Shown here piece after piece: positions 45,572 through 63,619 of a stretch of DNA of 64,000 nt. Origin of the DNA: a bacterium (GTDB lineage Bacteria > Bacillota_I > Bacilli_A > RF39 > UBA660); NCBI GenBank assembly GCA_019423565.1, contig JAHZBE010000002.1, positions 83,692 to 147,691 of the forward strand, given 5' to 3'. The position numbers were made by a program, and so were the translations under genes. Each line of letters begins with the position of its first letter. Positions within the stretch are counted from its first letter, which is position 1. The notes below the pieces were generated by a model. That model saw nothing but the letters and a program-made list of their open reading frames with translations, did not search any database and was not told the DNA's origin.

Positions 45572-45596
45572 AGGATCACCAAAGATTCTTTTTTTG
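45572..45596 (+). terminator. Rho-independent terminator of the CotF-like operon
   Basis: Stem AGGATC/GATTCT (one G-U pair) followed by a 7-T run, right after the stop at 45570. Confidence 0.55.
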
Positions 45597-45734
45597 AATT
45601 TATCATAATAATTATATAATACATATTTTAGGCAGAAAAATAGGGCTCCACCGTTAGATAGTGCCCTTGCAAAAACGATTTAACGTTTTTTTCTTGCATA
45701 AACAATATACCACAAAATGTATATTTATGTCAAA

Positions 45735-46742
45735 CTATTTATCAACATTCATATAGTTTTTTTCAATTATATTTTTGAAATATGAATATATTGATTTTAA
45801 TAGTTCATTATTATTATAATATTCTTTATGTAAAATTATTCTATAAAAAAATAAATTATTAATTTCTTTATTCACATTTTGTTTTATACCATCACTTGTT
45901 ACTATTTCATTAAACATATAAAGTGTAGATGTAATTTGTCTGATTCTCGAATTACTAAGTTTATTATTTCTTGTTACTTTTCCTATATCACAATTTTTTA
46001 AATATTGTACAATTTTATATGGAGCTGGATAAACATTGTCTTTCTTATTTAATTCACTTAATACACATGTATTATGTGCAACAGCATTTCTTAATTTTAC
46101 AATATCTCTCAATATATATACATCTCTATTTTCATCTACTAAATTATATTCTTTAGTATAAAAATCATAGAAATTAACCAATTCACCAAATGTTATAATT
46201 TCAAGAAATTCCCATATCGGTATATTTTCTAACTTTTTATCTTTATCAACATCATATTTAGAAAATATTTTTTGATAATATTCATTACCAACTTTTTTAA
46301 AAATACTATTATGAACTTTTTTAGGAAACTTTTCATCATTGAAATCTTTCTCTAAATATAGATTAACTATTTTATACCCATCCTCATACTCTATATTTTC
46401 TATTGTATTTAATATTTTTATTTTTAAATAATGTTCAATATCAATTATCATTTTAAATAATAATAATCTTAATCTATGATCAATAATTGCCATATCTTTC
46501 AAATATGCAAAATCTAAATCTTGATATAGTCCCTCATATTTTCCTGCTGGTGACGGATATTTCTGAAAATTATTTTTATATGCAGTAATATTATAATAAT
46601 TATTATTGTACTTTAAATATTTTTCCGCATCATTCTCTGAAATCAAATTAAATTTTACATTTTTTCGTTTTAAATATGGAACCATTTCTGATATATTCAT
46701 CATAGGTTTTAAAGAATTTACAGTTCTAGAATTATTATCCAT
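45735..46742 (-). CDS. Abi_2 (AbiD/AbiF-like) abortive-infection family protein, second copy
   Basis: 335 aa. IDIEHYLKIKILN..., IPIWEFLEIITFGELVNFY, IVKLRNAVAHNTCVL (the RNxxAH motif). Confidence 0.65.
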   Translation of the reverse strand: MDNNSRTVNSLKPMMNISEMVPYLKRKNVKFNLISENDAEKYLKYNNNYYNITAYKNNFQKYPSPAGKYEGLYQDLDFAYLKDMAIIDHRLRLLLFKMIIDIEHYLKIKILNTIENIEYEDGYKIVNLYLEKDFNDEKFPKKVHNSIFKKVGNEYYQKIFSKYDVDKDKKLENIPIWEFLEIITFGELVNFYDFYTKEYNLVDENRDVYILRDIVKLRNAVAHNTCVLSELNKKDNVYPAPYKIVQYLKNCDIGKVTRNNKLSNSRIRQITSTLYMFNEIVTSDGIKQNVNKEINNLFFYRIILHKEYYNNNELLKSIYSYFKNIIEKNYMNVDK

Positions 46743-46908
46743 ATACCCACCCTCTTACCAGTACACATAGTATATCATAATAAATTCTATATATTACAAA
46801 TATTTAATAAAGTTTTAACAATTTTCTTCAAAAATAATTAAATATGTTAAATTTTTTTGATTTTTTTAACATGTTTTAGTTATATGTTAAATTATTTAAC
46901 TTTTTTAA

Positions 46909-49265: not shown

Positions 49266-50594
49266 TTATCTTTCCCTTACTAAATTTTTAAATTCGTCTC
49301 CTCTATCTTCGAATCTATCATATTGATCCCAAGAAGCACATGCTGGACTAAGTAATACAACATCTCCAGGAGTACATATATCTTTTACCACATTCATTGC
49401 TTCTTTTAATGTATCATTTTTATAACATTTAATATTTAAATCATTACAAAATTCTTCTATTCTATTTTTTGTTTCTCCAAAACAAACAACACATTTAACA
49501 TTTTTCATTGAATCATCTAAATCATGAAATGAATGTCCTCTATCATATCCACCTAATAATAAAATTGTTGGTTTATCAAATGAATTAAGTGCAGTAATGG
49601 TAGACACACAGTTTGTTGCTTTTGAATCGTTATAATATGTTACACCATTTATTGTATCAACATATTCAAGTCTATGTTCAACACCTTTAAATTCTTTTAA
49701 AACATTTTGTATAACTTCATCTGTCACACCATATTTTTTTACTGCTATAATTGCGCCCATTATATTTTGGTAATTATGTTTTCCTTTTAATATTATGTCA
49801 TCTAGTTTTATTACTAACTTACCATCATAATAAATTCCCTCTTCATCATAATATGCAAGATTAGTTTTATCATGTCCATAATAAACTTTTGTACTTTTTA
49901 TATCATCTGTAATCTTCATGCTTACTTCATCATCTTTATTTATTACAGCCAAATCATCACTTGTATGATTATTAAATATTTTCTTTTTTGTCATTTGATA
50001 TACTTCATATGATTTATGAAAATCAAGGTGTGTAGGAGTAATATTTGTAAGTACACTCACATTTGTTTTAAAATCATACATATCACATAATTGATGATCA
50101 CTTATTTCAAGTACTAAATAACTATTTGGTTTAATATCTCGTACAAAATTTGATAAAGGAATTCCAATATTCCCTCCTAAATATACGTTATCAAATGAAT
50201 TTTTCATAAATTCACTTATAAGAGTTGTTGTTGTTGTTTTACCATTTGATCCAGTAACACCAATAATATTTACTGATTTATCTAGAAATGAGTATGCCAT
50301 TTCTATTTCATTTATTACTTTTATTCCAAGTTCTTTTGCTTTTACTACTACAGGATTGTCATATTTAATTCCTGGATTTTTAATAACATAATCAAAACTA
50401 TCATCAAGTAATGATAATTGATCACCTGTTATAACAACTTTAGCACCTAAAGATTCAAGTTCACTAACAAGTTCCTCTTTTTGTTCTTTACCATCAGTTA
50501 CAATTATTTCATTATTATAATCACTAAGTAATTTAGCAGCTTCATATCCACTTCTTGCCATACCTAGTATAAATATTTTCTTATTTTCAAACAT
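49266..50594 (-). CDS. murD: UDP-N-acetylmuramoylalanine--D-glutamate ligase
   Basis: KIFILGMARSG..., GVTGSNGKTTTTTL. I prefer the ATG at 50594 (RBS GAAGGTGA). The track TTG at 50630 lies inside a predicted extended -10 promoter (TGtTATAAT, -10 at 50613-50618). Confidence 0.9.
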   Translation of the reverse strand: MFENKKIFILGMARSGYEAAKLLSDYNNEIIVTDGKEQKEELVSELESLGAKVVITGDQLSLLDDSFDYVIKNPGIKYDNPVVVKAKELGIKVINEIEMAYSFLDKSVNIIGVTGSNGKTTTTTLISEFMKNSFDNVYLGGNIGIPLSNFVRDIKPNSYLVLEISDHQLCDMYDFKTNVSVLTNITPTHLDFHKSYEVYQMTKKKIFNNHTSDDLAVINKDDEVSMKITDDIKSTKVYYGHDKTNLAYYDEEGIYYDGKLVIKLDDIILKGKHNYQNIMGAIIAVKKYGVTDEVIQNVLKEFKGVEHRLEYVDTINGVTYYNDSKATNCVSTITALNSFDKPTILLLGGYDRGHSFHDLDDSMKNVKCVVCFGETKNRIEEFCNDLNIKCYKNDTLKEAMNVVKDICTPGDVVLLSPACASWDQYDRFEDRGDEFKNLVRER

Positions 50595-50744
50595 ATTATC
50601 ACCTTCAACAACATTATAACATGTATTCAATAAATAAGTAAAATAAATTAAGTATTATTCTTACCCATTAACATTTTATAAACATCTAAATTTTCTTTTA
50701 AAACTTTAAATATTTTTCCAATTGATATATCCACTAATAATATA

Positions 50745-50771
50745 TTAAAAAAATGCACTTTTTTGTGCATC
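50745..50771 (-). terminator. Rho-independent terminator of the surface-protein operon
   Basis: On the minus strand: ATGCAC-aaaaaa-GTGCAT followed by a 7-T run, 4 nt after the stop at 50775. Confidence 0.7.
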
Positions 50772-50774
50772 TTT

Positions 50775-53222
50775 TTAAAAATCATCATCGTCAAATGTAT
50801 CATATCTTGATGACTTATTTTGTTTTTCTTTTATTTCCTTTTTTAATCTATTTACTTCTTCTTGTTTAAGAAGCATTTTTAATTTATCTGGATTATTAGT
50901 TTCTAAACTTTCTTCTAATGCATCATATAATTCATCTTTTGTTACCACATCATCATATAAATCATATTTTTCTTTGTAATCTGCATCTATAGAATCAGAA
51001 TCTATTACATTTTTTGGCTCATTTATTTGCTTTGGTACTTCAGTACTTAATTTACTATCTTGATACAAATTTCCATTAGGATAAACTACATCATCATCTG
51101 TACCATTTCTTGAACCAATATTAATTTCAGGTTTAAATTCTATTTTAGTTCCTTCTGATATTTTTTGAATATCTTCTTTTTGTTTATTTTTTCTTTTAAT
51201 TAAAATTATAAGCATTATAATGATTGCAAGTAATAGTAATAAAAGTGATAATAATGCAAAGAATTGTCCTAAAGTTAATCCTAAAATTTTCTTACTTTTC
51301 TTTTCAACATCTATTTGGTAACTTTTTGTAAAACCATTTTCATCTGTAACTCTAACCATTACAACATTGTTACCTTCTTTTAAATCTTTATTACCTGTTA
51401 TTTCTACTTTCGCATTAGGATTTTTAGTAATTGCTTCTACATCTAGGGAATCAGTATTTCCATCAACAGTTAATTTATAATTTAATTTATCTGGATCAAA
51501 ATTATCATCTAATTTTTTACCATCAATTTTTATATCTGATAAATCATTATTACTTTTAAGTGGACTTCTTTTTACATTTAAAGTATAAATTCTTACGCTT
51601 CCATCTTCTGCGATTACTTTAATTGTTATAGGGGTTGTTTCTCCTACTTTGAAATCTTTATTACCCATTACTTCTACTTTAGCTTTATCTGATGCTTTAT
51701 AAGTTAAATCAAGTTTATTACTTTCATATGGTACTGTAACTTCATAATTACTCATATTTTTATCAAATTTAGGACTTATTTCACCATTACCTATTACTAA
51801 ACTTTCTAGATAATTTTCATTTGATTTTTTTTGTTCTTCTTTTGTACCAGAATTAGAACTTGTGCTTGTACTTGCTTTCTTTTTAGTTACATTTACTGTA
51901 TATGTATTTTTATTACCATTTTCTGCAGTTACTGTAACTGTAATATAATTCATACCTGGTTTTAGGTTACTATTACCACTTATTGTAACCTTAGCCTTAC
52001 TACTTGATGCAATTGCTTGTACTGTTAAGTTATCAACATTACTTGGTACTGTTATAGAATAAGAGAACTTATTTTTATTAAATGCTGGGCTTAATGTATA
52101 ACCACCTACATTTAATTTACTTAATGTTGCATCTGAGTCAAGAACAGGCTCATTTTTCTTTTCTTCCTCTCTTGTTACAGTAATTTTATATGTTTTTTTA
52201 CTTCCATCTTCTGCGGTTACTTCTACTGTTACTACATTGTTTCCTACCTTTAAATCTGTATTACCTACTATTTTAACGCTTGATTTTTCATTATTTGTTA
52301 TTGCTTTAACATCTATTTTAGTCGCATTATTTGGTACCTTTAAAGTATAATCTAAATTATCTTTATTAAATACTGGACTTAATGTATAACCTGGAACTGA
52401 TAAATCTTTTAGGGAATTATCACTTGATTTTTGTATTGCAGACTGTCTTGTTACAGTTATTGTATATGTTCTTTTATTTCCATTTTCTGCAGTTACTACT
52501 ACTGAAATATTATTAGCGCCTACACTTAAACTTTTATTTCCTGTTCCAGTAAGAGTTGCTTTAGCACTTTCTTTTGTAGCATTTAATGTTACACTTGAAA
52601 CATTATTTGGAACTGTTAAACTATAACTAGTTGTATTTTTATTAAATGCTGGACTAATTGTATATCCTGTAATACTTAAAGCAGATAAATAATTATTAGA
52701 ATCTTTAATAACAGGAGTTCCTATTGTTATTGTTTTTGAAACTGGCGTTACTGATAATTTATTATTATTACAGTCATTTAATAATACATTTGTCAAAGAT
52801 AAAGTTGTTGAACCAGTTTTTAATGTTTTAAATTTTAATGTAATTATATCTGTTGCTGAACTAAATCCATTTGATAAGGTAAAATCAATACCTGCAAATT
52901 TATAATTATTATTTTTATTTACAGATACAGCGTATGGAGAACTCATACCAGTTGCAGATATAAATTCTAAATAATCACTATCAAATGATATGTTTCCTCC
53001 TACACCACATATACCAATATTACTTGAATCAACATTAACATTGTTAACATTTACTTTAGCAGTTATTTCATCACCAATATTAGCATTATTATTTACTGTA
53101 TAACCAATACTAGCAGATCCTACTGTACTTGCAGCATTTGCTTTAATATATATTGCAAATATAGATGCTACTACTATTAAAATTATAATAAGTTTATTTG
53201 TTATCTTTCCATTATTCTTCAT
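50775..53222 (-). CDS. Membrane-anchored cohesin-like + cadherin-like beta-sandwich repeat protein (candidate anchoring scaffoldin)
   Basis: 815 aa with a signal peptide. N-terminal cohesin-like module (about 52727-53120: IGDEITAKVNVNNV...GNISFDSDYLEFISA...ITLKFKTLKTGSTTLSL). About six repeats of the form L..L.V.GY.LSP.F...YS..VP...TV.AENG..TYT..VTR. One TM (about 51230-51314), then an about 150-aa charged tail. Confidence 0.7.
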   Translation of the reverse strand: MKNNGKITNKLIIILIVVASIFAIYIKANAASTVGSASIGYTVNNNANIGDEITAKVNVNNVNVDSSNIGICGVGGNISFDSDYLEFISATGMSSPYAVSVNKNNNYKFAGIDFTLSNGFSSATDIITLKFKTLKTGSTTLSLTNVLLNDCNNNKLSVTPVSKTITIGTPVIKDSNNYLSALSITGYTISPAFNKNTTSYSLTVPNNVSSVTLNATKESAKATLTGTGNKSLSVGANNISVVVTAENGNKRTYTITVTRQSAIQKSSDNSLKDLSVPGYTLSPVFNKDNLDYTLKVPNNATKIDVKAITNNEKSSVKIVGNTDLKVGNNVVTVEVTAEDGSKKTYKITVTREEEKKNEPVLDSDATLSKLNVGGYTLSPAFNKNKFSYSITVPSNVDNLTVQAIASSSKAKVTISGNSNLKPGMNYITVTVTAENGNKNTYTVNVTKKKASTSTSSNSGTKEEQKKSNENYLESLVIGNGEISPKFDKNMSNYEVTVPYESNKLDLTYKASDKAKVEVMGNKDFKVGETTPITIKVIAEDGSVRIYTLNVKRSPLKSNNDLSDIKIDGKKLDDNFDPDKLNYKLTVDGNTDSLDVEAITKNPNAKVEITGNKDLKEGNNVVMVRVTDENGFTKSYQIDVEKKSKKILGLTLGQFFALLSLLLLLLAIIIMLIILIKRKNKQKEDIQKISEGTKIEFKPEINIGSRNGTDDDVVYPNGNLYQDSKLSTEVPKQINEPKNVIDSDSIDADYKEKYDLYDDVVTKDELYDALEESLETNNPDKLKMLLKQEEVNRLKKEIKEKQNKSSRYDTFDDDDF

Positions 53223-53235
53223 TATGTACCTCCTA

Positions 53236-56200
53236 CTAATTCTTCAAATAATATTGTAATGCACTTATCGCATCGCTTATATCTATTTCACTATCTTCTA
53301 CCATATCACCAGCAACAAAATATGCTCCTGTTAATGCTTTAGAACTATTTTCACCATTTAAATAATGACCTAGTATACCAATTGAATCACTGATATCTAT
53401 TACTCCATCACCATTAACATCACCTTTTATTACAATAGTTTTTCTATCTTTTTCTTCTCCATTAATCATTAACTTAACTATATATCCTGTTGCAACTATA
53501 TCACTATCTGATATAACACTTGTTTCATCACTATTTACTATTTCTAAATATTCATTAGGGTTATCTAATTGATCTTTTAATTCAAGTGCTGTTGTATTTA
53601 CTTTTACTGTTTTTATATAACCATTTGCTATTGTATGACCATATTTAACAGATGTTATTACTTCTGATATATTTGCTTTTTTCACAAATGTTACTTTATA
53701 TGTTAAGAATGTTCCATCTTCCGCTGTTACTAATATTACAACTTCTGTATTACCTACTTCTAGTGGCGAAATTGTATATGTATGTGGTGATGTATATGTT
53801 GTTCCATTTATTTTCATATTAGATTTATTATCTTCAAGTACACTTGTTAAATCAACTTTATTTACATCACTATCTATATTTACTATATAAGAATATTTTG
53901 TTTTATTAAAACTTAATTCTCCAGAGCTTACTCTTAAATCACTTAAGTATGCATTATTTGATGCTTGTTTTGAATATGTTATTTTATAGTTTTTAACTGT
54001 TTTACCATCTTCTGCAGTTACTTGAACTGTAATTGCACCATTACCATTATTTTTTGGAATATCAACAACATTACTACTTTGTTTATTACCATTTACTAAA
54101 TATGTAAGTGTTGATGTATCAATATTTGGTGTTGCATTTATTGTTAATTTTTCTAAACTATATGGTATTTCTCCAATACTATATTCTGTTTCATTCATAT
54201 TGAATTCTTTATCTAGAGTTTGTCCATTTACTGATAAACTACTAAGGTTAGCATCACTACTTAATTCTTTACCAAGTCTATGAATAATTACACTATATGT
54301 TTTTGTATTTCCATTTTGTGCGACAACTATAATTTCAAGTGTTGTGTCACCTTCTTTTAAATTATCAACTGTAATTGTTTTAGGTGTAAAGAAATTTTCT
54401 GAAAGAACTTTAATACTTGCATTTTTATCTTCTGTTTCTATATCAAAACTTATTTTATCAATATTATTTTCTACATTTATATTATATAAGAATGTAGTTT
54501 TATTAAAATCTATTTTACTTAATGATGGCGTTAATTTACTTAAGTAAGCATTATCTGATTTTACTATATTGTATGTTACTGTATATAATTTTTTACTTAT
54601 TCCATCTGCTGCGGTTACTTCTACTGTTATTATATTTTCACCAAGAAGTGTTGGTATATCTACTATATTACTATCAAAGGAAGTTGTTCCTACATAATAT
54701 TTTATAGTTGAATCTGAATTTGTTGGAGTAGCATTTATTTTTAATTTAGTTGTTCCATAAGGAATATCTCCAATACTATAATCTAGTGTTGTTGATGTAA
54801 ATGTTTTATCTAAATTATATCCACTTACACTTAAATCATGAAGTGTTGCATCATTACTTAATGCTTTTACAACATTAAATACATATACATCCATGCTTCC
54901 ATCTTCCGCAATTGTTGTAAGTCTTACTACTTTATCATCTTTTGAATATGTACCATTACCTGTTACTGTTGTAGTAGGAACAGTTGGCACGCCTTCTATA
55001 TTAAATTCTGTACTTCCATATGGAATTGTAAGTGTATATTCTCTTTTATCTTTTGATAAAGATGGAGATAACACTGCATTTGTTAAATTAACTTTTGATA
55101 AAGTTGTATCGCTTGATTTTGGTCTATTTACTTTTATTGTATATATTTTTATAGTTTTTCCATCTTCTGCTGTTACTGTTACTTTATAAATATTATCTAC
55201 TGTTGTTGATAATTCTATATTATCTTGTTTTGAAATAGATGCATTTTTATCTTCTGCAACCGCAGTTACTTCTTCTTTTGTAAGAATACTTTTTTCTTCT
55301 TCAACTGTTGTTTCATAATATAAAGTATCTTTATCAAAATCTGGTGTTAATGTATAACCCATTACTGATAATAAACTAAGGTTTGCATTATCATTTTTTA
55401 TTCTATTTACATGTAATTTATATGTTTTTTCTTCTCCATTTTGCGCTGTTACCGTAAGTACAATTTCATTATCTCCTGTTTTTAAAGATATTTCTCCATC
55501 ACCTTTTACGCTAGAATCAACATCTTTTAATACTGCTTCTACATTTATTTTTGTCTTACTATAATTTACATCACCTAAATCATATTCAAGTGTATCGGAA
55601 CTAAAGTTTTCTATTTCTTTTCCATCAACTTTTATCATTGATAAATCATTTATATTCTTCTTAGCTCTAATTACATTTATATTATAATCAAGTATTGAAC
55701 CTGATTCACTTTCTACTCTAATAACTATGTTATTATCTCCTACATTTAGTGAATGAATACCTGTTCCTGAGATAATAGTTGCTCTACTATCTGTTAGGGT
55801 TGCGGATACATCTATTGATGATATATTTCCATCAACATTTACTGTATAACTTGTTATATTTGAATTAAATTCTGGTGTTAATGTTCCTTCACTAACAGTT
55901 ATATCTGATAATGTATTTATACTTGATTTAGTTCTCTTTATATTTAATATATATGTATTTGACTTAGTCTCATCTTCACTTACTACAGTTACTTCTATTT
56001 GTTTTTCGCTTGTTGAAATATTATAGTGTCCTTCTCCTGATGTTACTTTTGAATTTGGTTCTAATTTAGTAGCAGTTACATTAAATTCTGTTACATCAAC
56101 AGGTACTGTTACTTCATATTCAAATACATTTGATGAGAAACTTGGTAAGAAACTACCATTAGTTACTGTTAAATTTGATAAAAGTGCAACATCTGATTTT

Positions 56201-59200
56201 TCTCTTGTTACTATTAATGTATATGCTCTTACGCTTCCATCTTCTGCAGTTACTAATATATTTATCTCATTATCACTTGTTGTTACAAGTTCAGTATCAT
56301 TGAATATATATTCTGCTTTTTTATCTGTTTCTACTTTTGGATCATTTACTGTAACTATTAAATTTGTTTTATCTGCTTTTGTCACTTCATTTGGTACAGT
56401 AACTTTATAATTTAATCCATCTTTAACTGCTGGAACTCCCGCAAGAGTTATACTCTGAATACCTGTATCATCATTTAATTTTCTTTTAACAGTAATTTTA
56501 TATATTTCACTTACACTAGTATCATGTGCTTTTACTGTTAATGTAATTGTATTTGATCCAGTACTTAAATTTATAAGTCCATTACCTAATACAGTTGCAA
56601 GTTCATCTTCAGCAATTCCTTCTACTTTTAGAGCAGTTGTATTATAATCAACTTCTCCTAAATCATATATTGTTTTACTTTTATTAAATCCTGTTATAGT
56701 CTTATTATTAATTTTTAAATCTTTTAAATAAGCATTTACTCTTTTACTTCTTTCAATAAATAAAGTATATGTTTTTAAATCTCCATTTTCTGCTGTTACA
56801 ATTATATCTATTTGATTACTTCCAAAGTTCAAATTAAATTTATTACTTAAATCTGTTGTTATAGTTGCTTTTCCTGTATCTTCTACAACTGCACTTACAC
56901 TTACACTATCAGTTGCACCTGGTACAGTTAAATTATAAATTAATTTGTCTTTGTTAAAACCTGATACGCTTACATTATCTACTTTTATATCACTTAAATT
57001 ATTATTTGATGATTTTTCTCTTTCAACTGTAACTGTATATTCATTTTGTGTTCCATCTTCTGCAATTACTGTTAAAGTTATATCTTTTATTCTTTCTGTT
57101 GATGGCATATTATATTCTGTACCATTTGCAGGTGTAATAACACTTTCACTATTTATTTCAGAAGATAAAGAGAACTTAGTTGTATCACTTGGTACACCAA
57201 TTTTACATTTATTATCAGTTAATAAACAATATCTTGATGAATCTGTTCCAATTGTAAGTGTTACCTTTTTTATACTTGTATCATTAGATTTTGTTCTTGT
57301 TACTTTTATAGTATATGTTTTTTCATCTCCATTTGCAGCAGTTACTTTAAATGTATATATGTTATCATTTTTAGTTGTTAAACTAATTGCTGGGCTTTTT
57401 TCTATGCTAGCGTCTTCACTTACAGTAACATCTACATCACTAGGTGTTAATGTTGTCTTATTATTTGGAAGTGTTACGCTATATGTCCCATCAGCATTTA
57501 ATGTTGGTGTTACTCCTGATACATTTATACTTTTTACTTTATTATCACTATTCTTTTCTCTTCTTACATTAATAATATAATTTTTTACTACTGATGTATC
57601 ATGTGCTGTTACTGTAATAATTATTTTGTTATCACCAGTTTTTAGTTTTATATTTCCTGTACCTGATACTTTAGCTAAAGTATCTTCCGCTATTGCAGAT
57701 ATATTTAATTCAGTTTTATTAAAAGGTACATCATCTAAAGTATATTCTGTTTTATCTTTATTAAAATCAGTAATTGTTTCATTATCTACTTTTAAGTCTT
57801 TTAAATTTGCATTTATTCTTTTACTTTTTTCTATATATAAAGTATATGTTTTTAGTTCATCATTTTCTGCTTTTACTACAATTTCTATTTTATTACTTCC
57901 AAAGTCTAAATTAAATTTATTACTTAAATCTGTTGTTATTACTGCTTTTCCTGTATCTTCTACTGTAGCAGATACAAGTACACTACTTGTAGTTCCTGGG
58001 ACTGTTATATTATAAGTTAATTTATTTTTGTTGAAATCAGATAAACTTACATTATCTACTTTTATATCGCTTAAATTATTATTTGATGATTTTTGTCTTT
58101 CAACTGTAACTGTATATTCTTTTTTAGTATCATCTTCTGCAGTTACTGTTAAAGTTATATCTTTTATTCTTTCTGTTGGTGTCATAGTAAATTCTGTACC
58201 ATTTACAGGTGAGATAGTACTTTCACTATTTATTTCTGATGTTAAAGAGAATTTTGTTGTATCGCTAGGTACATTAATTTTACATTTATCATTTTCCATT
58301 AAGCAATATCTTGATGAATCACTTCCTATTGTTAATGTTACTTTACTTAGTGTTGTATCATTAGATTTTGTTCTTGTTACTTTTATAGTATATGTTTTTT
58401 CGTCTCCGTTTTCAGCAGTTACTTTAAATGTATATATGTTATCATTTTTTGTTGATAAGTTTATTGCTGGACTTTTTTCTATACTAGCATCATCACTTAT
58501 TGTAACATCTACATCATTAGGTGTTAATGTTGTCTTATTATTTGGAAGTGTTACACTATATGTTCCATCATCATTTAATATTGGTGTTACTCCTGATACT
58601 TTTATACTTTTTACTAAATTATCACTATTTTTTTCTCTTTCAATATTTAATTTATATGTATTTTTAGTTGTACCATTATGCGCTGTTACTTCTATTACTA
58701 TTTGATTATCACCAGTTTTTAGTTCTATATCTCCTAAACCTTTTACTGTTGATAACTCATTTGTTTTAGTTGCATTTACATTGATTTTATTTTTACTAAA
58801 TGGAACTTTATCTAAAGCATATTCAAATGTATTTTTATTAAAATTGTCTATACTTACGCCATCTACTTTTATATCATCTAATAAAGCAATGTCATATTTC
58901 TTTCTTTCAACATTTATTGTATATGTTACTGTATTTCCGCTTTCTGCTCTTACTACTACTTCCACTTGATTATTTCCAAAGTTAAGATTTGTATTTCCTG
59001 TAATACTTTCTACTTTAGCATACTTTGATAGAGGTGTTGCATTAACATTTATACTTGTTACACTTCCATCTACAATTACATTATAATTTCTTGTTTCTTT
59101 GCTGAACACTGGAACAAGTTCTCCAGGATTTACTATTAAACTAGATAAATTTGCATCTGTTGATTTTGCTCTTACTAAGTTTAAAGTATAGTTTTGAATA

Positions 59201-61020
59201 CTTCCATCTTCTGCAGTTACTACAATTGTTACATTACTTGTATTAGTTGTAAATGTTTTAGATGCAGTATTTAATGTACTAGTAAGTGTTTCAGAACCAT
59301 TTGCATCTACTATTCCAACCATTGCTTTATCTGTATCATTAACAATTGCTTTTACATCTATAGAACTTACATCTTCTGTATAATTATAGTTATAATCTCC
59401 AAAGAATGTACTTGTAAAGGCTGGTGATAAACTAGCACTTGGTGTTGATTTAACTTCTAAGCTTTTTAATTTGTTATCATTTGATAATCTTCTAACATGT
59501 AATTTATATGTTTTTTCGTCTCCATTTTCTGCCTTTACAACTATATTTAATGTATTATCTCCAATATTTAAATTAACTGTTCCTGTTCCACTTTTTATTT
59601 GTGCTTTATCTGTATCTTCTACTACTGCTCCTACTAATAAACTTGTTGTTTCATTAGATACATTTGGTAAAGTATATTCTAAAGTATTTTTATTAAAATT
59701 AGTTACTGTTTTATTATTTACTGTTAAATTACTTAAATTATTATTACTTGATGGAGAAGTTCTAGTAACAGTGATTGTATATGTTTTGCTTGTACATGTA
59801 TTTCCTGGAACACTTGCATATTTAGAATCACAATTTTCTGCATTTACTACAATATTATGTGTATTTGTTGTTGCCCCATAATTTGTAAAATCAAATGTTC
59901 CTGTACCACTTGTTATAACTGCATTTGAATCATTTGTTAAAGCAGTTACTTCTGATGATTTAGTCTTATATGGAACAGTTGCTGTATATGATGTTTTAGC
60001 GCTACTAAATGTTCCAATATTTACACCATTTGTTAATGTTAAACTTTTTAGTGTCGCATCATTATTTAATCTATATACTGTTAATCTATATATTTCTTGT
60101 GTACCATCTTGTGATTGAACAACTAAATTAAAATTATTTTCTCCGACATTTAAACTTTTTGTTCCAAGACCACCAGGTAATACTTTTCCAGATGTATCAG
60201 ATGCTGTTGCAGATATATCAACACTTGTTATATTATTTGGTACTGTTGTTTGATAATCTCTTACTGTTTCTGAATCTGGTACAAATGTAGGATTTAATGG
60301 ATACTCTTGTGTACCATTTTTTACTGATAATGATTTTAATAATGTATTTGCGGACATTTTTCCGAAAACATTTAAGTTTATTCCTTCTGTAATAACTGGT
60401 CTTTCTGTACCATTGTCATATTTTGTTAATTTTGTACGAGAATTATCATATTCAAATGTTATTACAGAACCTGCTTTTGCAGTATCTTTTATTTTAAAAT
60501 ATACACTTGCGATTACGCCTTCCGTTGTAAGTGCTTTTGTTTTTGCTTGATCTTCTGCCAAAACACTAATCATACTATAACTTGGTGCATCATTTGCCGA
60601 TACTGTCCAATTTGTTTTCTTTTTATTGTCTGGTGACTTTCCAACTGCAGGCCATATACCTCCTTGATAAGTTGTTGACATATCAGCCTCTAAATATAAT
60701 GAACCTTCATCATACATGGGCTCAACTAAATTACTATCATATTTTATAGCCATCTGCATCATCATATCTGGGTCTATACCTGGTATATAATAAATTGAAA
60801 GTTGAATTACTTTTCCAGGTTCTACATCGGCATTATTTATAAGCTCATCACCTGTTCCAGATCCTTCCCAATCATTATCAAATGCATTCCAATCATATGC
60901 TTTTAATAAAAACTTGTGTTCACCATCTGCATGTACGCTAATTATGTTTAATGAAAATGATGAGATAAATACTGAAAATATAAGCATTAAGCTTAGTATT
61001 TTATAAAAAAACTTTCTCAT
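53236..61020 (-). CDS. Giant secreted protein: cohesin-like N-terminus, roughly two dozen cadherin-like beta-sandwich repeats, C-terminal dockerin
   Basis: 2594 aa with a signal peptide. Cohesin-like region about 60375-60920 (GKVIQLSIYYIPG...AIKYDSNLVEPMY...VIASVYFKIKDTAKAGSVITFEYD). About 90-aa repeats end ...YT(I/L)xVxR. C-terminal dockerin (about 53236-53450) has two Ca-loop repeats, DVNGDGVIDISD and DMVEDSEIDISD. Confidence 0.75.
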   Translation of the reverse strand: MRKFFYKILSLMLIFSVFISSFSLNIISVHADGEHKFLLKAYDWNAFDNDWEGSGTGDELINNADVEPGKVIQLSIYYIPGIDPDMMMQMAIKYDSNLVEPMYDEGSLYLEADMSTTYQGGIWPAVGKSPDNKKKTNWTVSANDAPSYSMISVLAEDQAKTKALTTEGVIASVYFKIKDTAKAGSVITFEYDNSRTKLTKYDNGTERPVITEGINLNVFGKMSANTLLKSLSVKNGTQEYPLNPTFVPDSETVRDYQTTVPNNITSVDISATASDTSGKVLPGGLGTKSLNVGENNFNLVVQSQDGTQEIYRLTVYRLNNDATLKSLTLTNGVNIGTFSSAKTSYTATVPYKTKSSEVTALTNDSNAVITSGTGTFDFTNYGATTNTHNIVVNAENCDSKYASVPGNTCTSKTYTITVTRTSPSSNNNLSNLTVNNKTVTNFNKNTLEYTLPNVSNETTSLLVGAVVEDTDKAQIKSGTGTVNLNIGDNTLNIVVKAENGDEKTYKLHVRRLSNDNKLKSLEVKSTPSASLSPAFTSTFFGDYNYNYTEDVSSIDVKAIVNDTDKAMVGIVDANGSETLTSTLNTASKTFTTNTSNVTIVVTAEDGSIQNYTLNLVRAKSTDANLSSLIVNPGELVPVFSKETRNYNVIVDGSVTSINVNATPLSKYAKVESITGNTNLNFGNNQVEVVVRAESGNTVTYTINVERKKYDIALLDDIKVDGVSIDNFNKNTFEYALDKVPFSKNKINVNATKTNELSTVKGLGDIELKTGDNQIVIEVTAHNGTTKNTYKLNIEREKNSDNLVKSIKVSGVTPILNDDGTYSVTLPNNKTTLTPNDVDVTISDDASIEKSPAINLSTKNDNIYTFKVTAENGDEKTYTIKVTRTKSNDTTLSKVTLTIGSDSSRYCLMENDKCKINVPSDTTKFSLTSEINSESTISPVNGTEFTMTPTERIKDITLTVTAEDDTKKEYTVTVERQKSSNNNLSDIKVDNVSLSDFNKNKLTYNITVPGTTSSVLVSATVEDTGKAVITTDLSNKFNLDFGSNKIEIVVKAENDELKTYTLYIEKSKRINANLKDLKVDNETITDFNKDKTEYTLDDVPFNKTELNISAIAEDTLAKVSGTGNIKLKTGDNKIIITVTAHDTSVVKNYIINVRREKNSDNKVKSINVSGVTPTLNADGTYSVTLPNNKTTLTPSDVDVTVSEDASIEKSPAISLTTKNDNIYTFKVTAANGDEKTYTIKVTRTKSNDTSIKKVTLTIGTDSSRYCLLTDNKCKIGVPSDTTKFSLSSEINSESVITPANGTEYNMPSTERIKDITLTVIAEDGTQNEYTVTVEREKSSNNNLSDIKVDNVSVSGFNKDKLIYNLTVPGATDSVSVSAVVEDTGKATITTDLSNKFNLNFGSNQIDIIVTAENGDLKTYTLFIERSKRVNAYLKDLKINNKTITGFNKSKTIYDLGEVDYNTTALKVEGIAEDELATVLGNGLINLSTGSNTITLTVKAHDTSVSEIYKITVKRKLNDDTGIQSITLAGVPAVKDGLNYKVTVPNEVTKADKTNLIVTVNDPKVETDKKAEYIFNDTELVTTSDNEINILVTAEDGSVRAYTLIVTREKSDVALLSNLTVTNGSFLPSFSSNVFEYEVTVPVDVTEFNVTATKLEPNSKVTSGEGHYNISTSEKQIEVTVVSEDETKSNTYILNIKRTKSSINTLSDITVSEGTLTPEFNSNITSYTVNVDGNISSIDVSATLTDSRATIISGTGIHSLNVGDNNIVIRVESESGSILDYNINVIRAKKNINDLSMIKVDGKEIENFSSDTLEYDLGDVNYSKTKINVEAVLKDVDSSVKGDGEISLKTGDNEIVLTVTAQNGEEKTYKLHVNRIKNDNANLSLLSVMGYTLTPDFDKDTLYYETTVEEEKSILTKEEVTAVAEDKNASISKQDNIELSTTVDNIYKVTVTAEDGKTIKIYTIKVNRPKSSDTTLSKVNLTNAVLSPSLSKDKREYTLTIPYGSTEFNIEGVPTVPTTTVTGNGTYSKDDKVVRLTTIAEDGSMDVYVFNVVKALSNDATLHDLSVSGYNLDKTFTSTTLDYSIGDIPYGTTKLKINATPTNSDSTIKYYVGTTSFDSNIVDIPTLLGENIITVEVTAADGISKKLYTVTYNIVKSDNAYLSKLTPSLSKIDFNKTTFLYNINVENNIDKISFDIETEDKNASIKVLSENFFTPKTITVDNLKEGDTTLEIIVVAQNGNTKTYSVIIHRLGKELSSDANLSSLSVNGQTLDKEFNMNETEYSIGEIPYSLEKLTINATPNIDTSTLTYLVNGNKQSSNVVDIPKNNGNGAITVQVTAEDGKTVKNYKITYSKQASNNAYLSDLRVSSGELSFNKTKYSYIVNIDSDVNKVDLTSVLEDNKSNMKINGTTYTSPHTYTISPLEVGNTEVVILVTAEDGTFLTYKVTFVKKANISEVITSVKYGHTIANGYIKTVKVNTTALELKDQLDNPNEYLEIVNSDETSVISDSDIVATGYIVKLMINGEEKDRKTIVIKGDVNGDGVIDISDSIGILGHYLNGENSSKALTGAYFVAGDMVEDSEIDISDAISALQYYLKN
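56480..58650. repeat. Tandem duplication, period 1077 bp (359 codons, four repeat domains), inside the giant gene
   Basis: Nucleotide register 56969 <-> 58046. Protein REKNSDNLVKSIKVSGVTPILNDDGTYSVTLPNNKTTLTP... recurs 359 aa later as REKNSDNKVKSINVSGVTPTLNADGTYSVTLPNNKTTLTP..., clearly more similar than other repeat pairs. Confidence 0.85.
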
Positions 61021-61373
61021 TTACTACCTCCTAAGGATAGACTCCTATTATTAATATCAATTATATCAAATTTAATTAATTTTGTGAACGAAAATTCCAT
61101 AATTTATAAGAAAACTATTATTTATAGGTTGTCTAAATATTATAAAATAGTCTTTTAAATGTCATATAAAAAATGACATTGAAATTTATTACAAAAAAAG
61201 TAATGAAGGAAAATATCATTACGTAGCAATTATTGTATGAATAACTAAATTTTTCAAGTAAATTTTTGTTTTATATAAGAAATTAAATAAGTAATTATCA
61301 CCACATAACTACATTATAATTATATACATTATTAACAACCCTTGGAATGTTATAATATATTTAAGGCAATGAA

Positions 61374-62033
61374 TTATTTTATCATTAATAATCTTGGCAT
61401 TTCAGACATTTTTTTTACATCAATTTCCCTATTAACGCCTTCTGACATCTCTCTCATTTGTATATTTCTATTATGTCTTAATATTTCTTTTGACATCATA
61501 ATAATTTGATTATATTTATTTATAGCACTAAAAATAAATTCTCCATCTTTTTTACTTAAATTGTTTATATAATTTATAATTCTAATATCAGCAGATACAA
61601 TTTTATCACTGGTTATTTTATCTCTTGATATAAATTCGTTCCCATAATGAATTGTATTTCTAACAGTTTTAATATTTTCATCTACTAAAAAATCAACAAT
61701 GTTTGATTGACATGGATCAAACTCATCTTCATTTTTGTATAAATCCGTTAAACCTGTTACTGACAAAGATATTCCATCTTTACCATTTACATGTGATTCT
61801 ATATCATCAATAAAATTTAAATATTCTTTTGAATATGATCTTATTCCTAAACTATTAAGTTCCATCATAGATAATATTCCATGTTCTATTATTGAAGGTG
61901 CATATTCATAAGCTGTATTATGATGATATTGATAAGTTTTATCACCCTTATTTTTTATGGCATATGAACATGCATATAACATATCTCTTATATATTTTAA
62001 TACATATTTTTCTTTAATAATTACTTCATTCAT
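61374..62033 (-). CDS. Hypothetical protein (219 aa)
   Basis: Intact ORF, no motif recognised. Confidence 0.45.
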   Translation of the reverse strand: MNEVIIKEKYVLKYIRDMLYACSYAIKNKGDKTYQYHHNTAYEYAPSIIEHGILSMMELNSLGIRSYSKEYLNFIDDIESHVNGKDGISLSVTGLTDLYKNEDEFDPCQSNIVDFLVDENIKTVRNTIHYGNEFISRDKITSDKIVSADIRIINYINNLSKKDGEFIFSAINKYNQIIMMSKEILRHNRNIQMREMSEGVNREIDVKKMSEMPRLLMIK

Positions 62034-62237: not shown

Positions 62238-62473
62238 TTATTCATCAGTTTCACTATTAATTATTAGTAAAAGTTCTTCTATTTTATTTTCTTTTTCTAT
62301 AATTTCCAATTTTAATTGATCTATCATATATTTTATATGTTCAATACTTAATTTATTTTCCATTAGACTTTTTTTCCAATCATTTCATCAACTCTTTGTT
62401 GAAACGTATTTATTTGTTAATCTAAATTATCTTTTTGAGCAGTTAACTGTTTTATCTGTTCTTTTAAATACAT
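62238..62473 (-). pseudogene. Decayed small coiled-coil gene (in-frame TAA plus homopolymer frameshift)
   Basis: The ATG at 62473 overlaps the upstream stop (TAATG). MYLKEQIKQLTAQKDNLD-TAA(62417-62419)-QINTFQQRVDEMIGKK, then the frame breaks in the T7 run 62369-62375 and continues MENKLSIEHIKYMIDQLKLEIIEKENKIEELLLIINSETDE. Confidence 0.5.
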
Positions 62474-63102
62474 TAATGTATATGTATCTGTTTCTTTTTC
62501 ATATTTTTTATTTTTTTTACTTCCAAATAATTTAGATAATATTTTAAAATATTTGAATGTCGTATACTTAAATCTGGAGTAAATAAATTTATATTATCTA
62601 ATTCATCTACTTTTTCTTTATATTCAAATTCATCTATCTCTTCTGAAATATATAAATCATGTATTTTTCGTCTAGCTTTACGATTCTCGTTTTGTTTATA
62701 TAATCTTTCTATTATCATTTTCATTGAAAATTTATCAGTATTTAATATTGCTTTATTATCTTTTTCCCATACTTTCATATCTCTAGATAAACTTCTAAAA
62801 CTACACCCTTTATCTACTAATCCAAATTTAATATAGTCTTTTGCAAAATCTTCAAATCCTTTTTTATTAAAATTGTATTCTTTTTCTAATAATACATCAT
62901 AAATTAATTCTTGATTTAAATAAGCATGTCTAAAAATATGTTGTATAGCAGGATAATAATTACTTCTTGTTACAGGGATATCGTTTTCGTTTAATTTTAA
63001 AAATTCTTCAATAGTATAAATACCCTTTAAATTTTAAAATTTTTTTGTTTCTAATGAAATTCCAAGAACTTTATCATCTTCTAATTTTGTTTTAATATCC
63101 AT
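62473..63102 (-). pseudogene. Hypothetical gene interrupted by one in-frame TAA
   Basis: ATG at 63102 with a GAGG RBS. 22 codons (MDIKTKLEDDKVLGISLETKKF), then TAA at 63034-63036. The same frame stays open for 186 more codons into track ORF 62473-62778. Confidence 0.6.
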
Positions 63103-63172: not shown

Positions 63173-63619
63173 TTATTTTACTTTTTTTCTATTTTCAATA
63201 TTATATAAATCTTTATAATCTCTAAATTTAACCGTTATTATTTCAATAGGTGTTATTTTTTCATGACATCTATATTGTAAAGATCTTCCTCCATTATGTA
63301 TAAATTTATCACTATTCTTTTCAAAAACATAAATATAGCCAATTTCTTCTTCATCTAAATTATCATTTTCAAAAAAAACATAAGGATTACCATCAATTCT
63401 GTCAGTTTCAAAACTACCAGAATATTTTTCATTTTTACCAAAAGAATATGCAGATGCTATAATCCATGAAGATGTTAAATATACAGCAGTATCTTCATTT
63501 AATGGATTATGATTTTCATCATATGCTTTTCTTGGCTCCAAATACTCTAATAATAATGGACTTCCTGCAAATAGATATTTAGGATTATCTAAATTATTTT
63601 CAATATATTCATTTTTCAT
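63173..63619 (-). CDS. Hypothetical protein (148 aa)
   Basis: Intact ORF. Its ATG directly abuts the stop (63620-63622) of the upstream gene. No motif recognised. Confidence 0.45.
   Translation of the reverse strand: MKNEYIENNLDNPKYLFAGSPLLLEYLEPRKAYDENHNPLNEDTAVYLTSSWIIASAYSFGKNEKYSGSFETDRIDGNPYVFFENDNLDEEEIGYIYVFEKNSDKFIHNGGRSLQYRCHEKITPIEIITVKFRDYKDLYNIENRKKVK

Follow-up and report, generated by a model that had tools for sequence, protein, structure and literature searches.

Cohesin-dockerin pairing is, to our knowledge, known almost entirely for organising enzymes. Which structure, then, is built by two neighbouring genes that encode cohesins, a dockerin and long arrays of cadherin-like repeats? 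The genes lie in a 64-kb stretch of DNA, here called the window, from an uncultured low-GC human-gut bacterium whose closest genomes carry the NCBI labels 'Clostridium sp. CAG:433' and 'uncultured Tenericutes UMGS855'. Our analysis indicates that the gene pair probably encodes the two inner tiers of a non-covalent, enzyme-free cell-surface fibre.

The two genes and the signals around them are arranged as follows.

61060..61088, minus strand: best sigma-70-like promoter match upstream of the giant gene (TTCACA-17-TATAAT with TG extension)
53236..61020, minus strand: giant gene, 2594 aa (signal peptide, cohesin, 24 cadherin-like repeats, X module, dockerin)
50775..53222, minus strand: anchor gene, 815 aa (signal peptide, cohesin, five cadherin-like repeats, TM helix, cytoplasmic tail)
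50745..50778, minus strand: intrinsic-terminator-like hairpin and T-run directly after the anchor stop

Both open reading frames have the coordinates and lengths first given for them in a reading of the letters alone (the sequence-only reading), and the pair occupies 10,246 nt or 16.0% of the window, where about 16% had been estimated. The giant stop is followed by the anchor start after 13 nt, and AGGAGG precedes the ATG of each gene, with a spacing of 8 nt at the giant. The promoter candidate matches at 11 of 12 positions and is a consensus match only; this AT-rich region has no excess of promoter-like sites (64 found versus 87 expected). Consistent with the shared terminator proposed earlier, the coding strand between 50500 and 61500 contains a single terminator-like site, 3′ of the anchor gene, and none between the genes. 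Because of the short gap, the one terminator-like site and the one good promoter match, the giant and anchor genes look like one transcription unit. Plus-strand open reading frames within the giant gene (56945-57580 and others, with TTG starts) were rejected as antisense artefacts of an AT-rich repeat gene. With Rfam, no match was observed in the window or in the related locus L002.

The anchor protein was divided into the following parts.

53133..53222, minus strand: signal peptide, aa 1-30 (...IKANA/AST), from the translation
52698..53132, minus strand: cohesin, 'class A', aa ~31-175, from Pfam and a family profile
51300..52688, minus strand: five cadherin-like repeats, aa 179-641, from Pfam PF12733 and a self-built HMM
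51198..51287, minus strand: single TM helix, aa 646-675, followed by KRKNKQK (positive-inside)
50778..51197, minus strand: cytoplasmic tail, aa 676-815, with motifs EFKPEINIGSRN (aa 695) and YDLYDDVVTKDELYDAL...DKLKMLLKQEEVNRLKKE (aa 753-796)

The corresponding parts of the giant protein are listed below.

60928..61020, minus strand: signal peptide, aa 1-31 (...ISVHA/DGEH), from the translation
60355..60927, minus strand: cohesin, 'class G', aa ~32-222, from Pfam and a family profile
53680..60339, minus strand: 24 contiguous cadherin-like beta-sandwich repeats, aa 228-2447, from a self-built HMM
53428..53679, minus strand: X module, aa ~2448-2531, a small alpha/beta domain adjoining the dockerin, from alignments and an AF2 model
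53239..53427, minus strand: dockerin, aa 2532-2594, with calcium-loop/helix segments DVNGDGVIDISDSIGILGHYL and DMVEDSEIDISDAISALQYYL, from Pfam, a lineage HMM and Foldseek

Both N-terminal modules had been taken for cohesins, and both assignments were borne out. The Pfam cohesin family PF00963 is reported for neither protein at full length and passes only when the N-terminal module is scanned alone, where the anchor module scores 30.2 bits and the giant module 32.9 bits against a gathering cut-off of 24.1. A profile of 13 anchor-cohesin orthologues matched the NagJ cohesin of C. perfringens in the PDB (2w1n, 2jh2, 2o4e, 2ozn) with E-values of 1.2e-10 to 2.5e-10, in an alignment that spans the whole domain (positions 3/4-135 of 137). 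The NanJ cohesin 2vo8 was also matched, and 23 of the 25 PDB matches were cohesins, the other two being weak SoxZ matches. By this profile match, the anchor cohesin belongs to the same subfamily as the NagJ cohesin. A 25-sequence class-G profile matched 23 PDB chains, all of them cohesins (best 1aoh, E=2.3e-4); divergent members of the class-G family drop below Pfam detection. No mutual similarity between class A and class G was observed in sequence comparison. Judged by their sequences, the two cohesins are different, mutually unrecognisable classes, and in known systems unrelated cohesin sequences go with different specificities.

Repeats were counted with an HMM built on the repeats of both proteins. 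In the anchor, PF12733 (Cadherin-like) scored 200.9 bits; the repeats are indeed cadherin-like, but the HMM counts five contiguous copies and not the 'about six' first suggested. In the giant, PF12733 reached 554.4 bits over 21 stretches, and the 24 repeats of the HMM agree with the earlier 'roughly two dozen'. Part of the giant gene, at about 55.4-59.7 kb, consists of about four copies of a 1077-nt four-domain super-repeat, seen as direct repeats spaced 1077/1083 nt and, in off-diagonal blast, as units 79% identical at the nucleotide level. TRF missed this super-repeat because of its period limit of 500 nt. The N-terminal signal-peptide pattern of the giant recurs among family members.

The signal peptide, single TM helix and charged tail of the anchor were likewise found as described before, the tail containing 35 acidic and 25 basic residues among 140 aa. 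The TM helix is at the equivalent position in every anchor orthologue, and the tail motifs are kept in 11-13 anchor orthologues from different species; searches of Pfam, NCBIfam and PDB sequences gave no relative of the tail. The anchor lacks an LPXTG ahead of its C-terminal hydrophobic stretch and has the TM helix and the 140-aa tail instead. The five anchor repeats presumably serve as a spacer through the cell wall.

The C-terminal dockerin of the giant scores just below Pfam detection, with Dockerin_1 (PF00404) at 22.6 bits for the full-length protein, 0.3 bits under the cut-off of 22.9, and at 21.6 bits for the C-terminal fragment. Yet a lineage dockerin HMM scored 68.5 bits, and the predicted structure superposes on solved dockerins, in accordance with the earlier assignment. 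The orthologues P0005-P0007 are annotated with PF00404, and the orthologues bear clean duplicated dockerins. The duplication is also present in the giant (DVNGDGVIDISD plus helix and DMVEDSEIDISD plus helix). Its first calcium loop is canonical; its second is non-canonical, with V at ligand position 3, and the same loop is found in a 76%-identical relative. The AF2 model of X module and dockerin had a pLDDT of 95.7 and a pTM of 0.89 when a 49-sequence alignment was used, whereas a 4-sequence alignment gave a pLDDT of only 41.7. Helices span 97-109, 119-125 and 135-145 of the model. In Foldseek, its dockerin part matched 8ajy_B, 2ccl_B, 4uyp_B, 1ohz_B and 2vn5 over about 62 residues with an rmsd of 1.8-2.3 Å, target TM-scores of 0.66-0.86 and probabilities of 0.94-1.0. 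The E-values were weak (≥6e-3) because the domain is short.

X module and dockerin are predicted to pack together as a single compact unit. Throughout the family, the ~84-aa X module directly adjoins the dockerin, and in the alignments it is the more conserved of the two; no Pfam or NCBIfam match to it was found. With Foldseek, no good match of the X module to known X modules was observed: 4wkz_A, 4iu2_B, 4iu3_B and 5k39_B gave an rmsd of 8.5-15 Å and TM-scores of 0.25-0.39, and the type-II X-dockerin 5k39_B was a poor structural match (probability 0.21). On the model, the X module appears to be new; homology to the X of CipA or of R. flavefaciens was not found. The two dockerin halves are near-identical within species and their recognition positions vary between species, which is the pattern of functional dual-binding dockerins.

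One explanation for these parts would be an ordinary enzyme-organising system, similar to a cellulosome or amylosome, in which the two proteins act as scaffoldins and the genes of dockerin-bearing enzymes lie at other places in the genome. The relationship of the anchor cohesin to those of C. perfringens, which are located on glycoside hydrolases, is in line with this. However, each protein has one cohesin and no cohesin array, and Pfam gave no match to a GH or CBM family or to an SLH module in either of them. No further cohesin, dockerin or cadherin-like open reading frame was found elsewhere in the 64-kb window, and no dockerin was detected in its other 54 kb. In 1.23 Mb sampled from 80 related genomes, only two dockerin open reading frames were detected, neither of them on an enzyme and both within similar surface-protein clusters. 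The cargo in related clusters is all adhesin-like (cadherin-like, Big_2, LRR, Flg_new and glycine-rich). The combination of cohesin array, CBM and dockerin-bearing GHs that defines a cellulosome or amylosome was absent from the window and from the sampled related genomes, and we regard an enzyme-organising role as very improbable. With real cohesins, a real dockerin and neither enzyme nor CBM, the idea of the sequence-only reading that a cellulosome-style principle is reused without enzymes is supported.

Does the giant bind the anchor? When 16 species-level genomes were scanned with the X-dockerin profile, each gave one locus, and the order giant-then-anchor was observed at all 14 loci that reach far enough and on two metagenome contigs. 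There, the gene immediately 3′ of the X-dockerin giant codes for a protein that begins with a signal peptide and an N-terminal module, continues with cadherin-like repeats and ends with a TM helix and a conserved tail of 115-185 aa, and the gap between giant and anchor is about 0-20 nt in most related loci. In CAG:433, an apparently ORF-free 5 kb downstream of the anchor proved to be a giant open reading frame running off the locus. The conserved order fits docking of the giant on the anchored protein, as had been proposed earlier. In known cellulosomes, X-dockerins attach a scaffoldin or adhesin to a cell-bound cohesin: in C. thermocellum CipA to SdbA/OlpB, and in R. flavefaciens ScaB and the adhesin CttA to ScaE. 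From gene order and this analogy, we infer that the giant binds the anchor.

Not every part of the related loci is as simple. In the anchors of five relatives (L003, L004, L010, L013 and L016), the N-terminal module was not recognised as a cohesin by Pfam or the lineage HMMs. Relatives also encode extra parts, namely small cohesin-Big_2-dockerin adaptors and second TM-anchored cohesin proteins, and because of these the wiring may be more complex. It is conceivable that giant and anchor are independent adhesins that do not bind each other, have partners elsewhere or bind glycans, and are adjacent for co-regulation only. The further cohesin- and dockerin-bearing proteins would agree with this, as would the repeats themselves, since PF12733 is a family that we take to be proposed as carbohydrate-binding in its Pfam description. 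Nor does the co-evolution test speak against it. In a Mantel test on distance matrices over 12 species, the dockerin correlated with the anchor cohesin (r=0.62) and with the anchor tail (r=0.67), and in Mantel and partial-Mantel tests every segment pair was correlated (r 0.46-0.67). These values show shared phylogeny rather than specific dockerin-cohesin co-evolution, and they do not tell which dockerin pairs with which cohesin. On the other hand, three observations speak against independent adhesins: the strict gene order at every assessable locus, the presence of a single X-dockerin giant of this type in each scanned genome, and the movement of the pair as one cassette. We consider independent adhesins unlikely.

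The movement of the cassette was seen by comparison with a sister genome.

50610..61351, no strand assigned: ~10.7-kb segment missing from the same site in sister genome UMGS855

This segment comprises the cassette plus about 237 nt and about 130 nt of junction sequence present in neither context, and the cassette of the window occupies a chromosomal site different from that in sister genomes. Nucleotide identity to sister genomes is 97.5-98.3% for the cassette and 94-97% for the backbone. Neither an integrase nor a transposase was found in the cassette, and no clear target duplication was seen. A mobile-element or foreign origin was rejected on these grounds and on the backbone-like similarity, and the relocation looks like an intragenomic rearrangement rather than the arrival of foreign DNA.

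In most strains of the species, a gene for a protein of about 5855 aa lies directly upstream of the giant; with the commonest anchor variant, a 5857-aa gene was present there in all 8 places of 8, and with a common giant variant in 3 of 3. In the strain of the window, the cassette does not adjoin this gene; a 149-kb scaffold of ERZ28593521 has the arrangement of the window. The full protein was reached by stepping through the encoding contigs and related loci. It contains a Dockerin_1 match (29.4 bits in Pfam), an X-like module, three glycine-rich domains (239.6 bits), about 47 cadherin-like repeats and Big_2, and no cohesin was found in it. A homologue search with its X-dockerin was swamped by generic cadherin-like proteins. 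The recognition-helix residues of the two dockerins differ (LIDVTDKSKLKDHIL against VIDISDSIGILGHYL).

These observations bear on the suggestion of the sequence-only reading that the giant polymerises with itself. Its dockerin would then also, or instead, bind the giant cohesin and form head-to-tail chains or an S-layer-like lattice that is primed by the anchor. In favour of this, the giant unites a cohesin with a dockerin, its neighbourhood in the strain of the window encodes no second dockerin protein, and the relocated cassette can function away from the ~5855-aa gene. Against self-assembly, the two cohesins are unrelated in sequence, and the separate, cohesin-less X-dockerin protein upstream, with its different recognition residues, is a dedicated candidate partner for the class-G cohesin. 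We consider self-assembly of the giant unlikely. With two cohesins of different classes and two dockerins with different recognition residues, a serial three-tier chain is favoured over a lattice, and the data suggest the order anchor, giant, super-giant.

In the enzyme-free fibre that we propose, both proteins would be exported by Sec. The anchor would be a type-I membrane protein, with its cohesin borne outward through the wall on the five cadherin-like domains, and the X-dockerin of the giant would bind this cohesin in a calcium-dependent manner. Once docked, the giant would project as a stalk about 100 nm long, and its distal, different cohesin would recruit a further X-dockerin protein, in most strains of the species the ~5855-aa upstream protein. 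The assembly would serve adhesion to host mucus, food particles or other cells and not catalysis, and the conserved anchor tail would bind an intracellular partner.

In plan, the proposed system resembles CttA/ScaB-ScaE of R. flavefaciens (4iu2/4iu3), where a non-enzymatic protein is likewise held on a cell-bound single cohesin via a C-terminal X-dockerin; both organisms are gut or rumen Firmicutes. However, ScaE is sortase-anchored, whereas the present anchor has a TM helix and a conserved cytoplasmic tail. The ~84-aa X module, as predicted, could not be superposed on that of R. flavefaciens. Also unlike CttA/ScaB, the present stalk consists of 24 cadherin-like domains with a second cohesin, and no enzyme-bearing scaffoldins are linked. 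The hierarchy resembles that of CipA-SdbA/OlpB/Orf2p in C. thermocellum, in which an X-dockerin plugs into a cell-bound cohesin and another cohesin type recruits the next tier. There, the anchors are SLH-bearing, CipA has nine cohesins and a CBM3, and the cargo is enzymatic, whereas the present pair has one cohesin per protein, neither CBM nor SLH, and adhesin-like cargo. Non-cellulosomal use in gut-associated Firmicutes is shared with the C. perfringens NagJ cohesin/NagH FIVAR-dockerin (2ozn) and NanJ 2vo8, but those modules are on secreted glycoside hydrolases and link enzymes, while here they are on a membrane anchor and repeat-only stalks. Long fibres of Ig- or cadherin-like repeats with a presumed role in adhesion are also formed by Ebh, SiiE and LapA-type adhesins and by sortase-assembled pili. 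These are one chain or covalently polymerised, whereas here two to three separate proteins with cohesin-dockerin plugs are proposed.

The family to which the giant belongs is large. An exhaustive HMMER search gave 338 representative clusters with E≤1e-10, of which 68 reach E≤1e-30; about 85 full-length giants have an N-terminal module, 6-29 cadherin-like repeats and a C-terminal X-dockerin of about 146 aa. No enzyme modules were found in the family, and most of these full-length giants have no stretch long enough for one. Near-identical metagenomic copies of anchor and giant number more than 1000 each, on contigs of up to 753 kb, and word-index searches with the X-dockerin and the anchor cohesin returned only fragments of close relatives. 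Database names of family members say only 'cadherin-like beta sandwich domain-containing protein', and our literature searches turned up no description of the X-dockerin giant family. A family widespread in metagenomes is without a name, in poorly known uncultured low-GC gut bacteria in which the giants are among the largest genes.

The assembly principle itself is already known; its proposed use for an enzyme-free fibre is new. In the present system, the cohesin-dockerin pair appears as the joint of a modular adhesive fibre without enzymes, probably for adhesion. New parts are the X module and a cohesin protein that is TM-anchored and has a conserved cytoplasmic domain. A further new part is a set of putative orthogonal cohesin-dockerin pairs, with recognition residues that vary between species; these could be used as mechanically strong connectors in protein engineering. 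A bolder and improbable extension is that anchor, 2594-aa stalk and 5855-aa distal adhesin place more than 9000 residues in series over hundreds of nm, and that the anchor tail signals to the cytoplasm when the tip is bound or under tension. If true, bacteria of a little-known, uncultured gut lineage would have their own equivalent of outside-in adhesion signalling.

The two open reading frames described in the sequence-only reading were recovered at exactly the same positions on the minus strand, which carries nearly every gene of this strongly AT-rich window (GC ~0.20-0.32). The gene of the 2594-aa protein (the giant) is transcribed first and that of the 815-aa protein (the anchor) second. 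They are separated by 13 nt, AGGAGG precedes both ATGs, and the top promoter-like match lies 40-70 nt 5′ of the giant ATG. A terminator-like hairpin directly 3′ of the anchor stop is the sole such site on the coding strand and can be regarded as the single terminator earlier proposed for both genes. These sequence features make it plausible that the pair, here called the cassette, forms one two-gene transcription unit.

Features of the gene pair (window positions)
53236..61020, minus strand: giant gene, ORF of 2594 aa
50775..53222, minus strand: anchor gene, ORF of 815 aa
50778-50745, coding strand: terminator-like hairpin 3′ of the anchor stop

Scanning of the full-length giant and anchor with Pfam did not report Cohesin. 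When the N-terminal modules were scanned singly, both exceeded the curated cut-off of 24.1 bits (anchor 30.2 bits, giant 32.9 bits). A profile of 13 anchor-type modules retrieved from the PDB the cohesin of Clostridium perfringens NagJ (2w1n, 2jh2, 2o4e, 2ozn) over the whole domain at E ~1e-10; besides the cohesin of NanJ it matched cellulosomal ones, and cohesins made up 23 of all 25 matches. With a profile of 25 giant-type modules, all 23 matching chains were cohesins (top match the CipA cohesin 1aoh, 2.3e-4). Both modules are cohesins, as had been proposed, and similarity between the two was undetectable in sequence comparison. By its profile matches, the anchor cohesin belongs to the non-cellulosomal NagJ subfamily. 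Non-cellulosomal cohesins and dockerins have reportedly been catalogued by Peer et al. in 2009, as cited in PMC6487960. In five related loci (L003 2082-3323, L004 1334-2404, L010 6482-8638, L013 6447-8810, L016 6628-9009), the anchors carry a different N-terminal module with the pattern AAVGT..I.G......G.T...V.....ADG.I.S.D.SCV... and conserved cysteines. It was matched neither by Pfam nor by our own cohesin HMMs, and represents a cohesin that has diverged very far or else a module put in its place.

The C-terminal dockerin of the giant falls 0.3 bits short of the Pfam cut-off, while clean duplicated dockerins are found in its orthologues. An AlphaFold2 model of the last 148 residues, based on a 49-sequence alignment, reached a pLDDT of 95.7 and a pTM of 0.89. 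Its final ~62 residues overlay on solved dockerins at 1.8-2.3 Å, which supports the original assignment. The preceding ~84 residues form a conserved small alpha/beta module, whose conservation in family alignments exceeds that of the dockerin. It matched no Pfam or NCBIfam family, and a structural search against known X modules gave nothing convincing. We call it a new X module, distinct from those of CipA and Ruminococcus flavefaciens, and refer to both parts together as the X-dockerin. Across species, the dockerins are internally symmetric and their recognition residues are species-specific.

PF12733 was found by Pfam in both proteins. An HMM built from their own cadherin-like repeats revealed 24 contiguous copies in the giant (aa 228-2447) and 5 in the anchor (aa 179-641), so that the earlier estimate of roughly two dozen is retained and that of about six is lowered. 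A unit of four domains (1077 nt, 359 aa) occurs in ~4 tandem copies in the giant gene (window ~55400-59750, minus strand) and gave rise to ~16 of the repeats. Adjacent units are ~79% identical in nucleotides, which points to a recent expansion of the stalk. The anchor ends, as previously described, in one TM helix (aa 646-675), followed by a positive-inside cluster and a 140-aa tail; SLH, LPXTG, GH and CBM were all absent from it. Anchor tails of different species share the motifs E[FV]KPEFNFGSKN and PYDPYDE.VTK.E.IDAI...DP.KLKMLL.Q..LN, and no known relative of the tail was found in Pfam, NCBIfam or PDB sequences.

The genomes closest to the window are those of 'Clostridium sp. CAG:433' and 'uncultured Tenericutes bacterium UMGS855'; at the protein level they are 96-98% identical to it in the cassette and in one backbone gene alike. 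Remoter relatives, from guts of human, mouse, rabbit, ruminant and chicken, are MAGs that carry labels such as Bacilli, Tenericutes or Bacillales. When a single genome of each species was scanned with the X-dockerin profile, 16 loci were found, exactly one per genome. The gene following the giant was anchor-like in all 14 loci reaching beyond the giant stop and in 2 metagenome contigs, mostly after a gap of 0-20 nt. Each of these neighbours begins with a signal peptide and an N-terminal module, continues with 2-6 cadherin-like repeats and a TM helix, and ends in a tail 115-185 aa long. An exhaustive HMMER search with the same profile yielded, as representatives after clustering at 50% identity, 4382 matches at E<=1e-3 (mostly generic dockerins), 338 at E<=1e-10 and 68 at E<=1e-30. 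The ~85 full-length members are built alike: a signal peptide is followed by an N-terminal module, in most of them ~230 aa long, then by 6-29 cadherin-like repeats and, at the C-terminus, by an X-dockerin of ~146 aa. Most leave no room for anything between these parts; a few have extended uncharacterised regions, N-terminal or internal. Our giant-type cohesin HMM recognises roughly half of these N-terminal modules, and the remainder are too divergent for Pfam. The two cassette proteins belong to clusters (90% identity) that count 1057 and 1617 members, none of them named; relatives, if named by sources, are called 'cadherin-like beta sandwich domain-containing protein'. A complete giant-anchor-second-anchor cluster (L019, WRFU01000011.1) lies on a contig that binning assigned to 'Candidatus Saccharibacteria'. 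Its GC of 0.44 is far above that of the other loci, and either mis-binning or transfer could be the cause.

The absence of enzymes claimed in the sequence-only reading was borne out: no GH or CBM was found, and none of the cohesin- or dockerin-bearing proteins observed in related clusters has a catalytic domain. Their cargo is cadherin-like, Big_2, LRR, Flg_new or glycine-rich. The 64-kb window contains no other ORF of the cohesin, dockerin or cadherin-like kind. Only 2 ORFs matched the dockerin HMM in 1.23 Mb taken from the surroundings of mur genes in 80 related genomes, a weak and biased sample. Neither encodes an enzyme; both encode an LRR-Big_2-Flg_new protein with an X-dockerin, between two TM-anchored cadherin-like proteins. 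For a cellulosome producer, one dockerin per few tens of kb is expected. The system is not a cellulosome: each protein has a single cohesin, CBMs and an SLH or sortase anchor are lacking, and no enzyme was seen in the window or in related clusters. A sortase gene is present in one related cluster. A rumen survey credited Tenericutes with 1.5-1.8% of cohesins and did not follow these up (PMC6487960). Our literature search found no published account of the giant-anchor architecture.

In two remoter relatives, the stretch immediately 5′ of the MurD-like gene (L045 3351-9155, L034 3411-9192) encodes a 1098-aa LRR, Big_2, Flg_new protein. Its X-dockerin is matched by the lineage HMM only, and it is flanked by two proteins with signal peptide, N-terminal module, cadherin-like repeats and TM helix. 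This surface-protein theme occupies a chromosomal neighbourhood equal to that of the window. Related clusters also encode small (~260-300 aa) secreted cohesin-Big_2-dockerin proteins (Dockerin_1 32 bits), and L008 has one Big_2-dockerin protein without cohesin (36 bits). With or without cohesin, these are possible adaptors.

Small secreted cohesin/dockerin proteins (positions in related loci)
L007 8964-9878
L008 8654-9571
L008 9929-10756
L016 9013-9915
L008 10760-11479

The window differs from its sister genomes in the place of the cassette. Homology to the cassette of the sister genomes extends only from 94 nt 5′ of the giant ATG to the anchor stop (97.5-98.3% nt), and the terminators after the anchor are not the same. 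In UMGS855, the 219-aa ORF (window 61374-62033) and the MurD-like gene (window 49266-50630) are adjacent, ~45 nt apart, and the cassette is kept at another chromosomal place.

Cassette insertion/deletion polymorphism
Window 50610-61351: cassette present
L021 9958-10004 (UMGS855): empty site

The junctions of ~237 nt (61115-61351) and ~130 nt (50610-50747) match neither context; the cassette contains no recombinase gene and its junctions no clear target duplication. Since the arrangement recurs in a 149-kb metagenome scaffold and a Logan contig, it is probably real, but a minority. The ORFs 5′ of the cassette (61374-62033, 62473-62778 and 63173-63619, minus strand; 219, 101 and 148 aa) belong to no Pfam or NCBIfam family. 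On the 3′ side lie two Mur ligases, UvdE, an Abi_2 gene, a PBP5-type carboxypeptidase and NrdD, and a peptidoglycan wall is therefore probable. The Abi-like (PF07751) segment (45594-46900, Abi_2 ORF 45735-46742) is missing at the matching site in CAG:433, where L048 goes from window 46901 to 45593, and is present in UMGS855. By its family match, this is a strain-variable gene of the abortive-infection type.

In most strains, the cassette lies between a 5857-aa gene on the 5′ side and the gene of a 3.6-3.8-kaa Listeria-Bacteroides-repeat protein on the 3′ side (8 of 8 places for the commonest anchor variant, 3 of 3 for a common giant variant). The 3′ protein has neither cohesin nor dockerin. 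The 5′ protein, which we call the super-giant, was fully recovered from CAG:433.

Super-giant gene
L114 2315-19879 (CAG:433): 5855 aa; also in L103-L113, L115 and L116

The protein opens with a signal peptide, and three glycine-rich domains of the ALK_LTK_GRD type (239.6 bits) lie near its N-terminus. It further comprises ~47 cadherin-like repeats, one Big_2 domain, one X-like module and a dockerin, which at 29.4 bits passes the Pfam cut-off. No cohesin was detected with Pfam or with either of the two lineage cohesin HMMs. In CAG:433 and a Hadza MAG (L116), a ~1.5-kb insertion carrying a 275-aa ORF on the opposite strand (L002 790-1617, minus; no Pfam family) separates the 5855-aa gene from the giant.

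The sequence-only reading had the giant dock onto the anchor and perhaps onto itself, forming chains or a lattice. The helices of the super-giant dockerin (LIDVTDKSKLKDHIL / LIDVSDNSRIADYIL) differ from those of the giant (VIDISDSIGILGHYL / EIDISDAISALQYYL), so that two distinct cohesins and two distinct X-dockerins occur in this species. The wiring that these sequences suggest as simplest would be serial, with the giant X-dockerin on the anchor cohesin and the super-giant X-dockerin on the giant cohesin. It takes the place of self-polymerisation, for which the giant has both a cohesin and a dockerin, but which is a less economical and less likely reading. The observations behind the earlier reading stand, and its interpretation is supported in part, with docking onto the anchor kept as a proposal.

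We consider the docking model as a whole somewhat favoured. Giant and anchor would be exported by Sec, and the anchor would adopt a type-I topology with its five repeats as a spacer across the wall. By analogy with the CipA X-dockerin on SdbA and the ScaB and CttA X-dockerins on ScaE, the giant X-dockerin may plug into the anchor cohesin in a calcium-dependent manner. Such a system would act as the anchoring tier does in a cellulosome, with CttA, the R. flavefaciens adhesin that docks on ScaE, as its nearest likeness. The 24 domains of ~4 nm each would give a stalk of ~100 nm, at whose end the giant cohesin may recruit a distal adhesin. The conserved anchor tail would engage a cytoplasmic partner, and the assembly as a whole may have an adhesive role.
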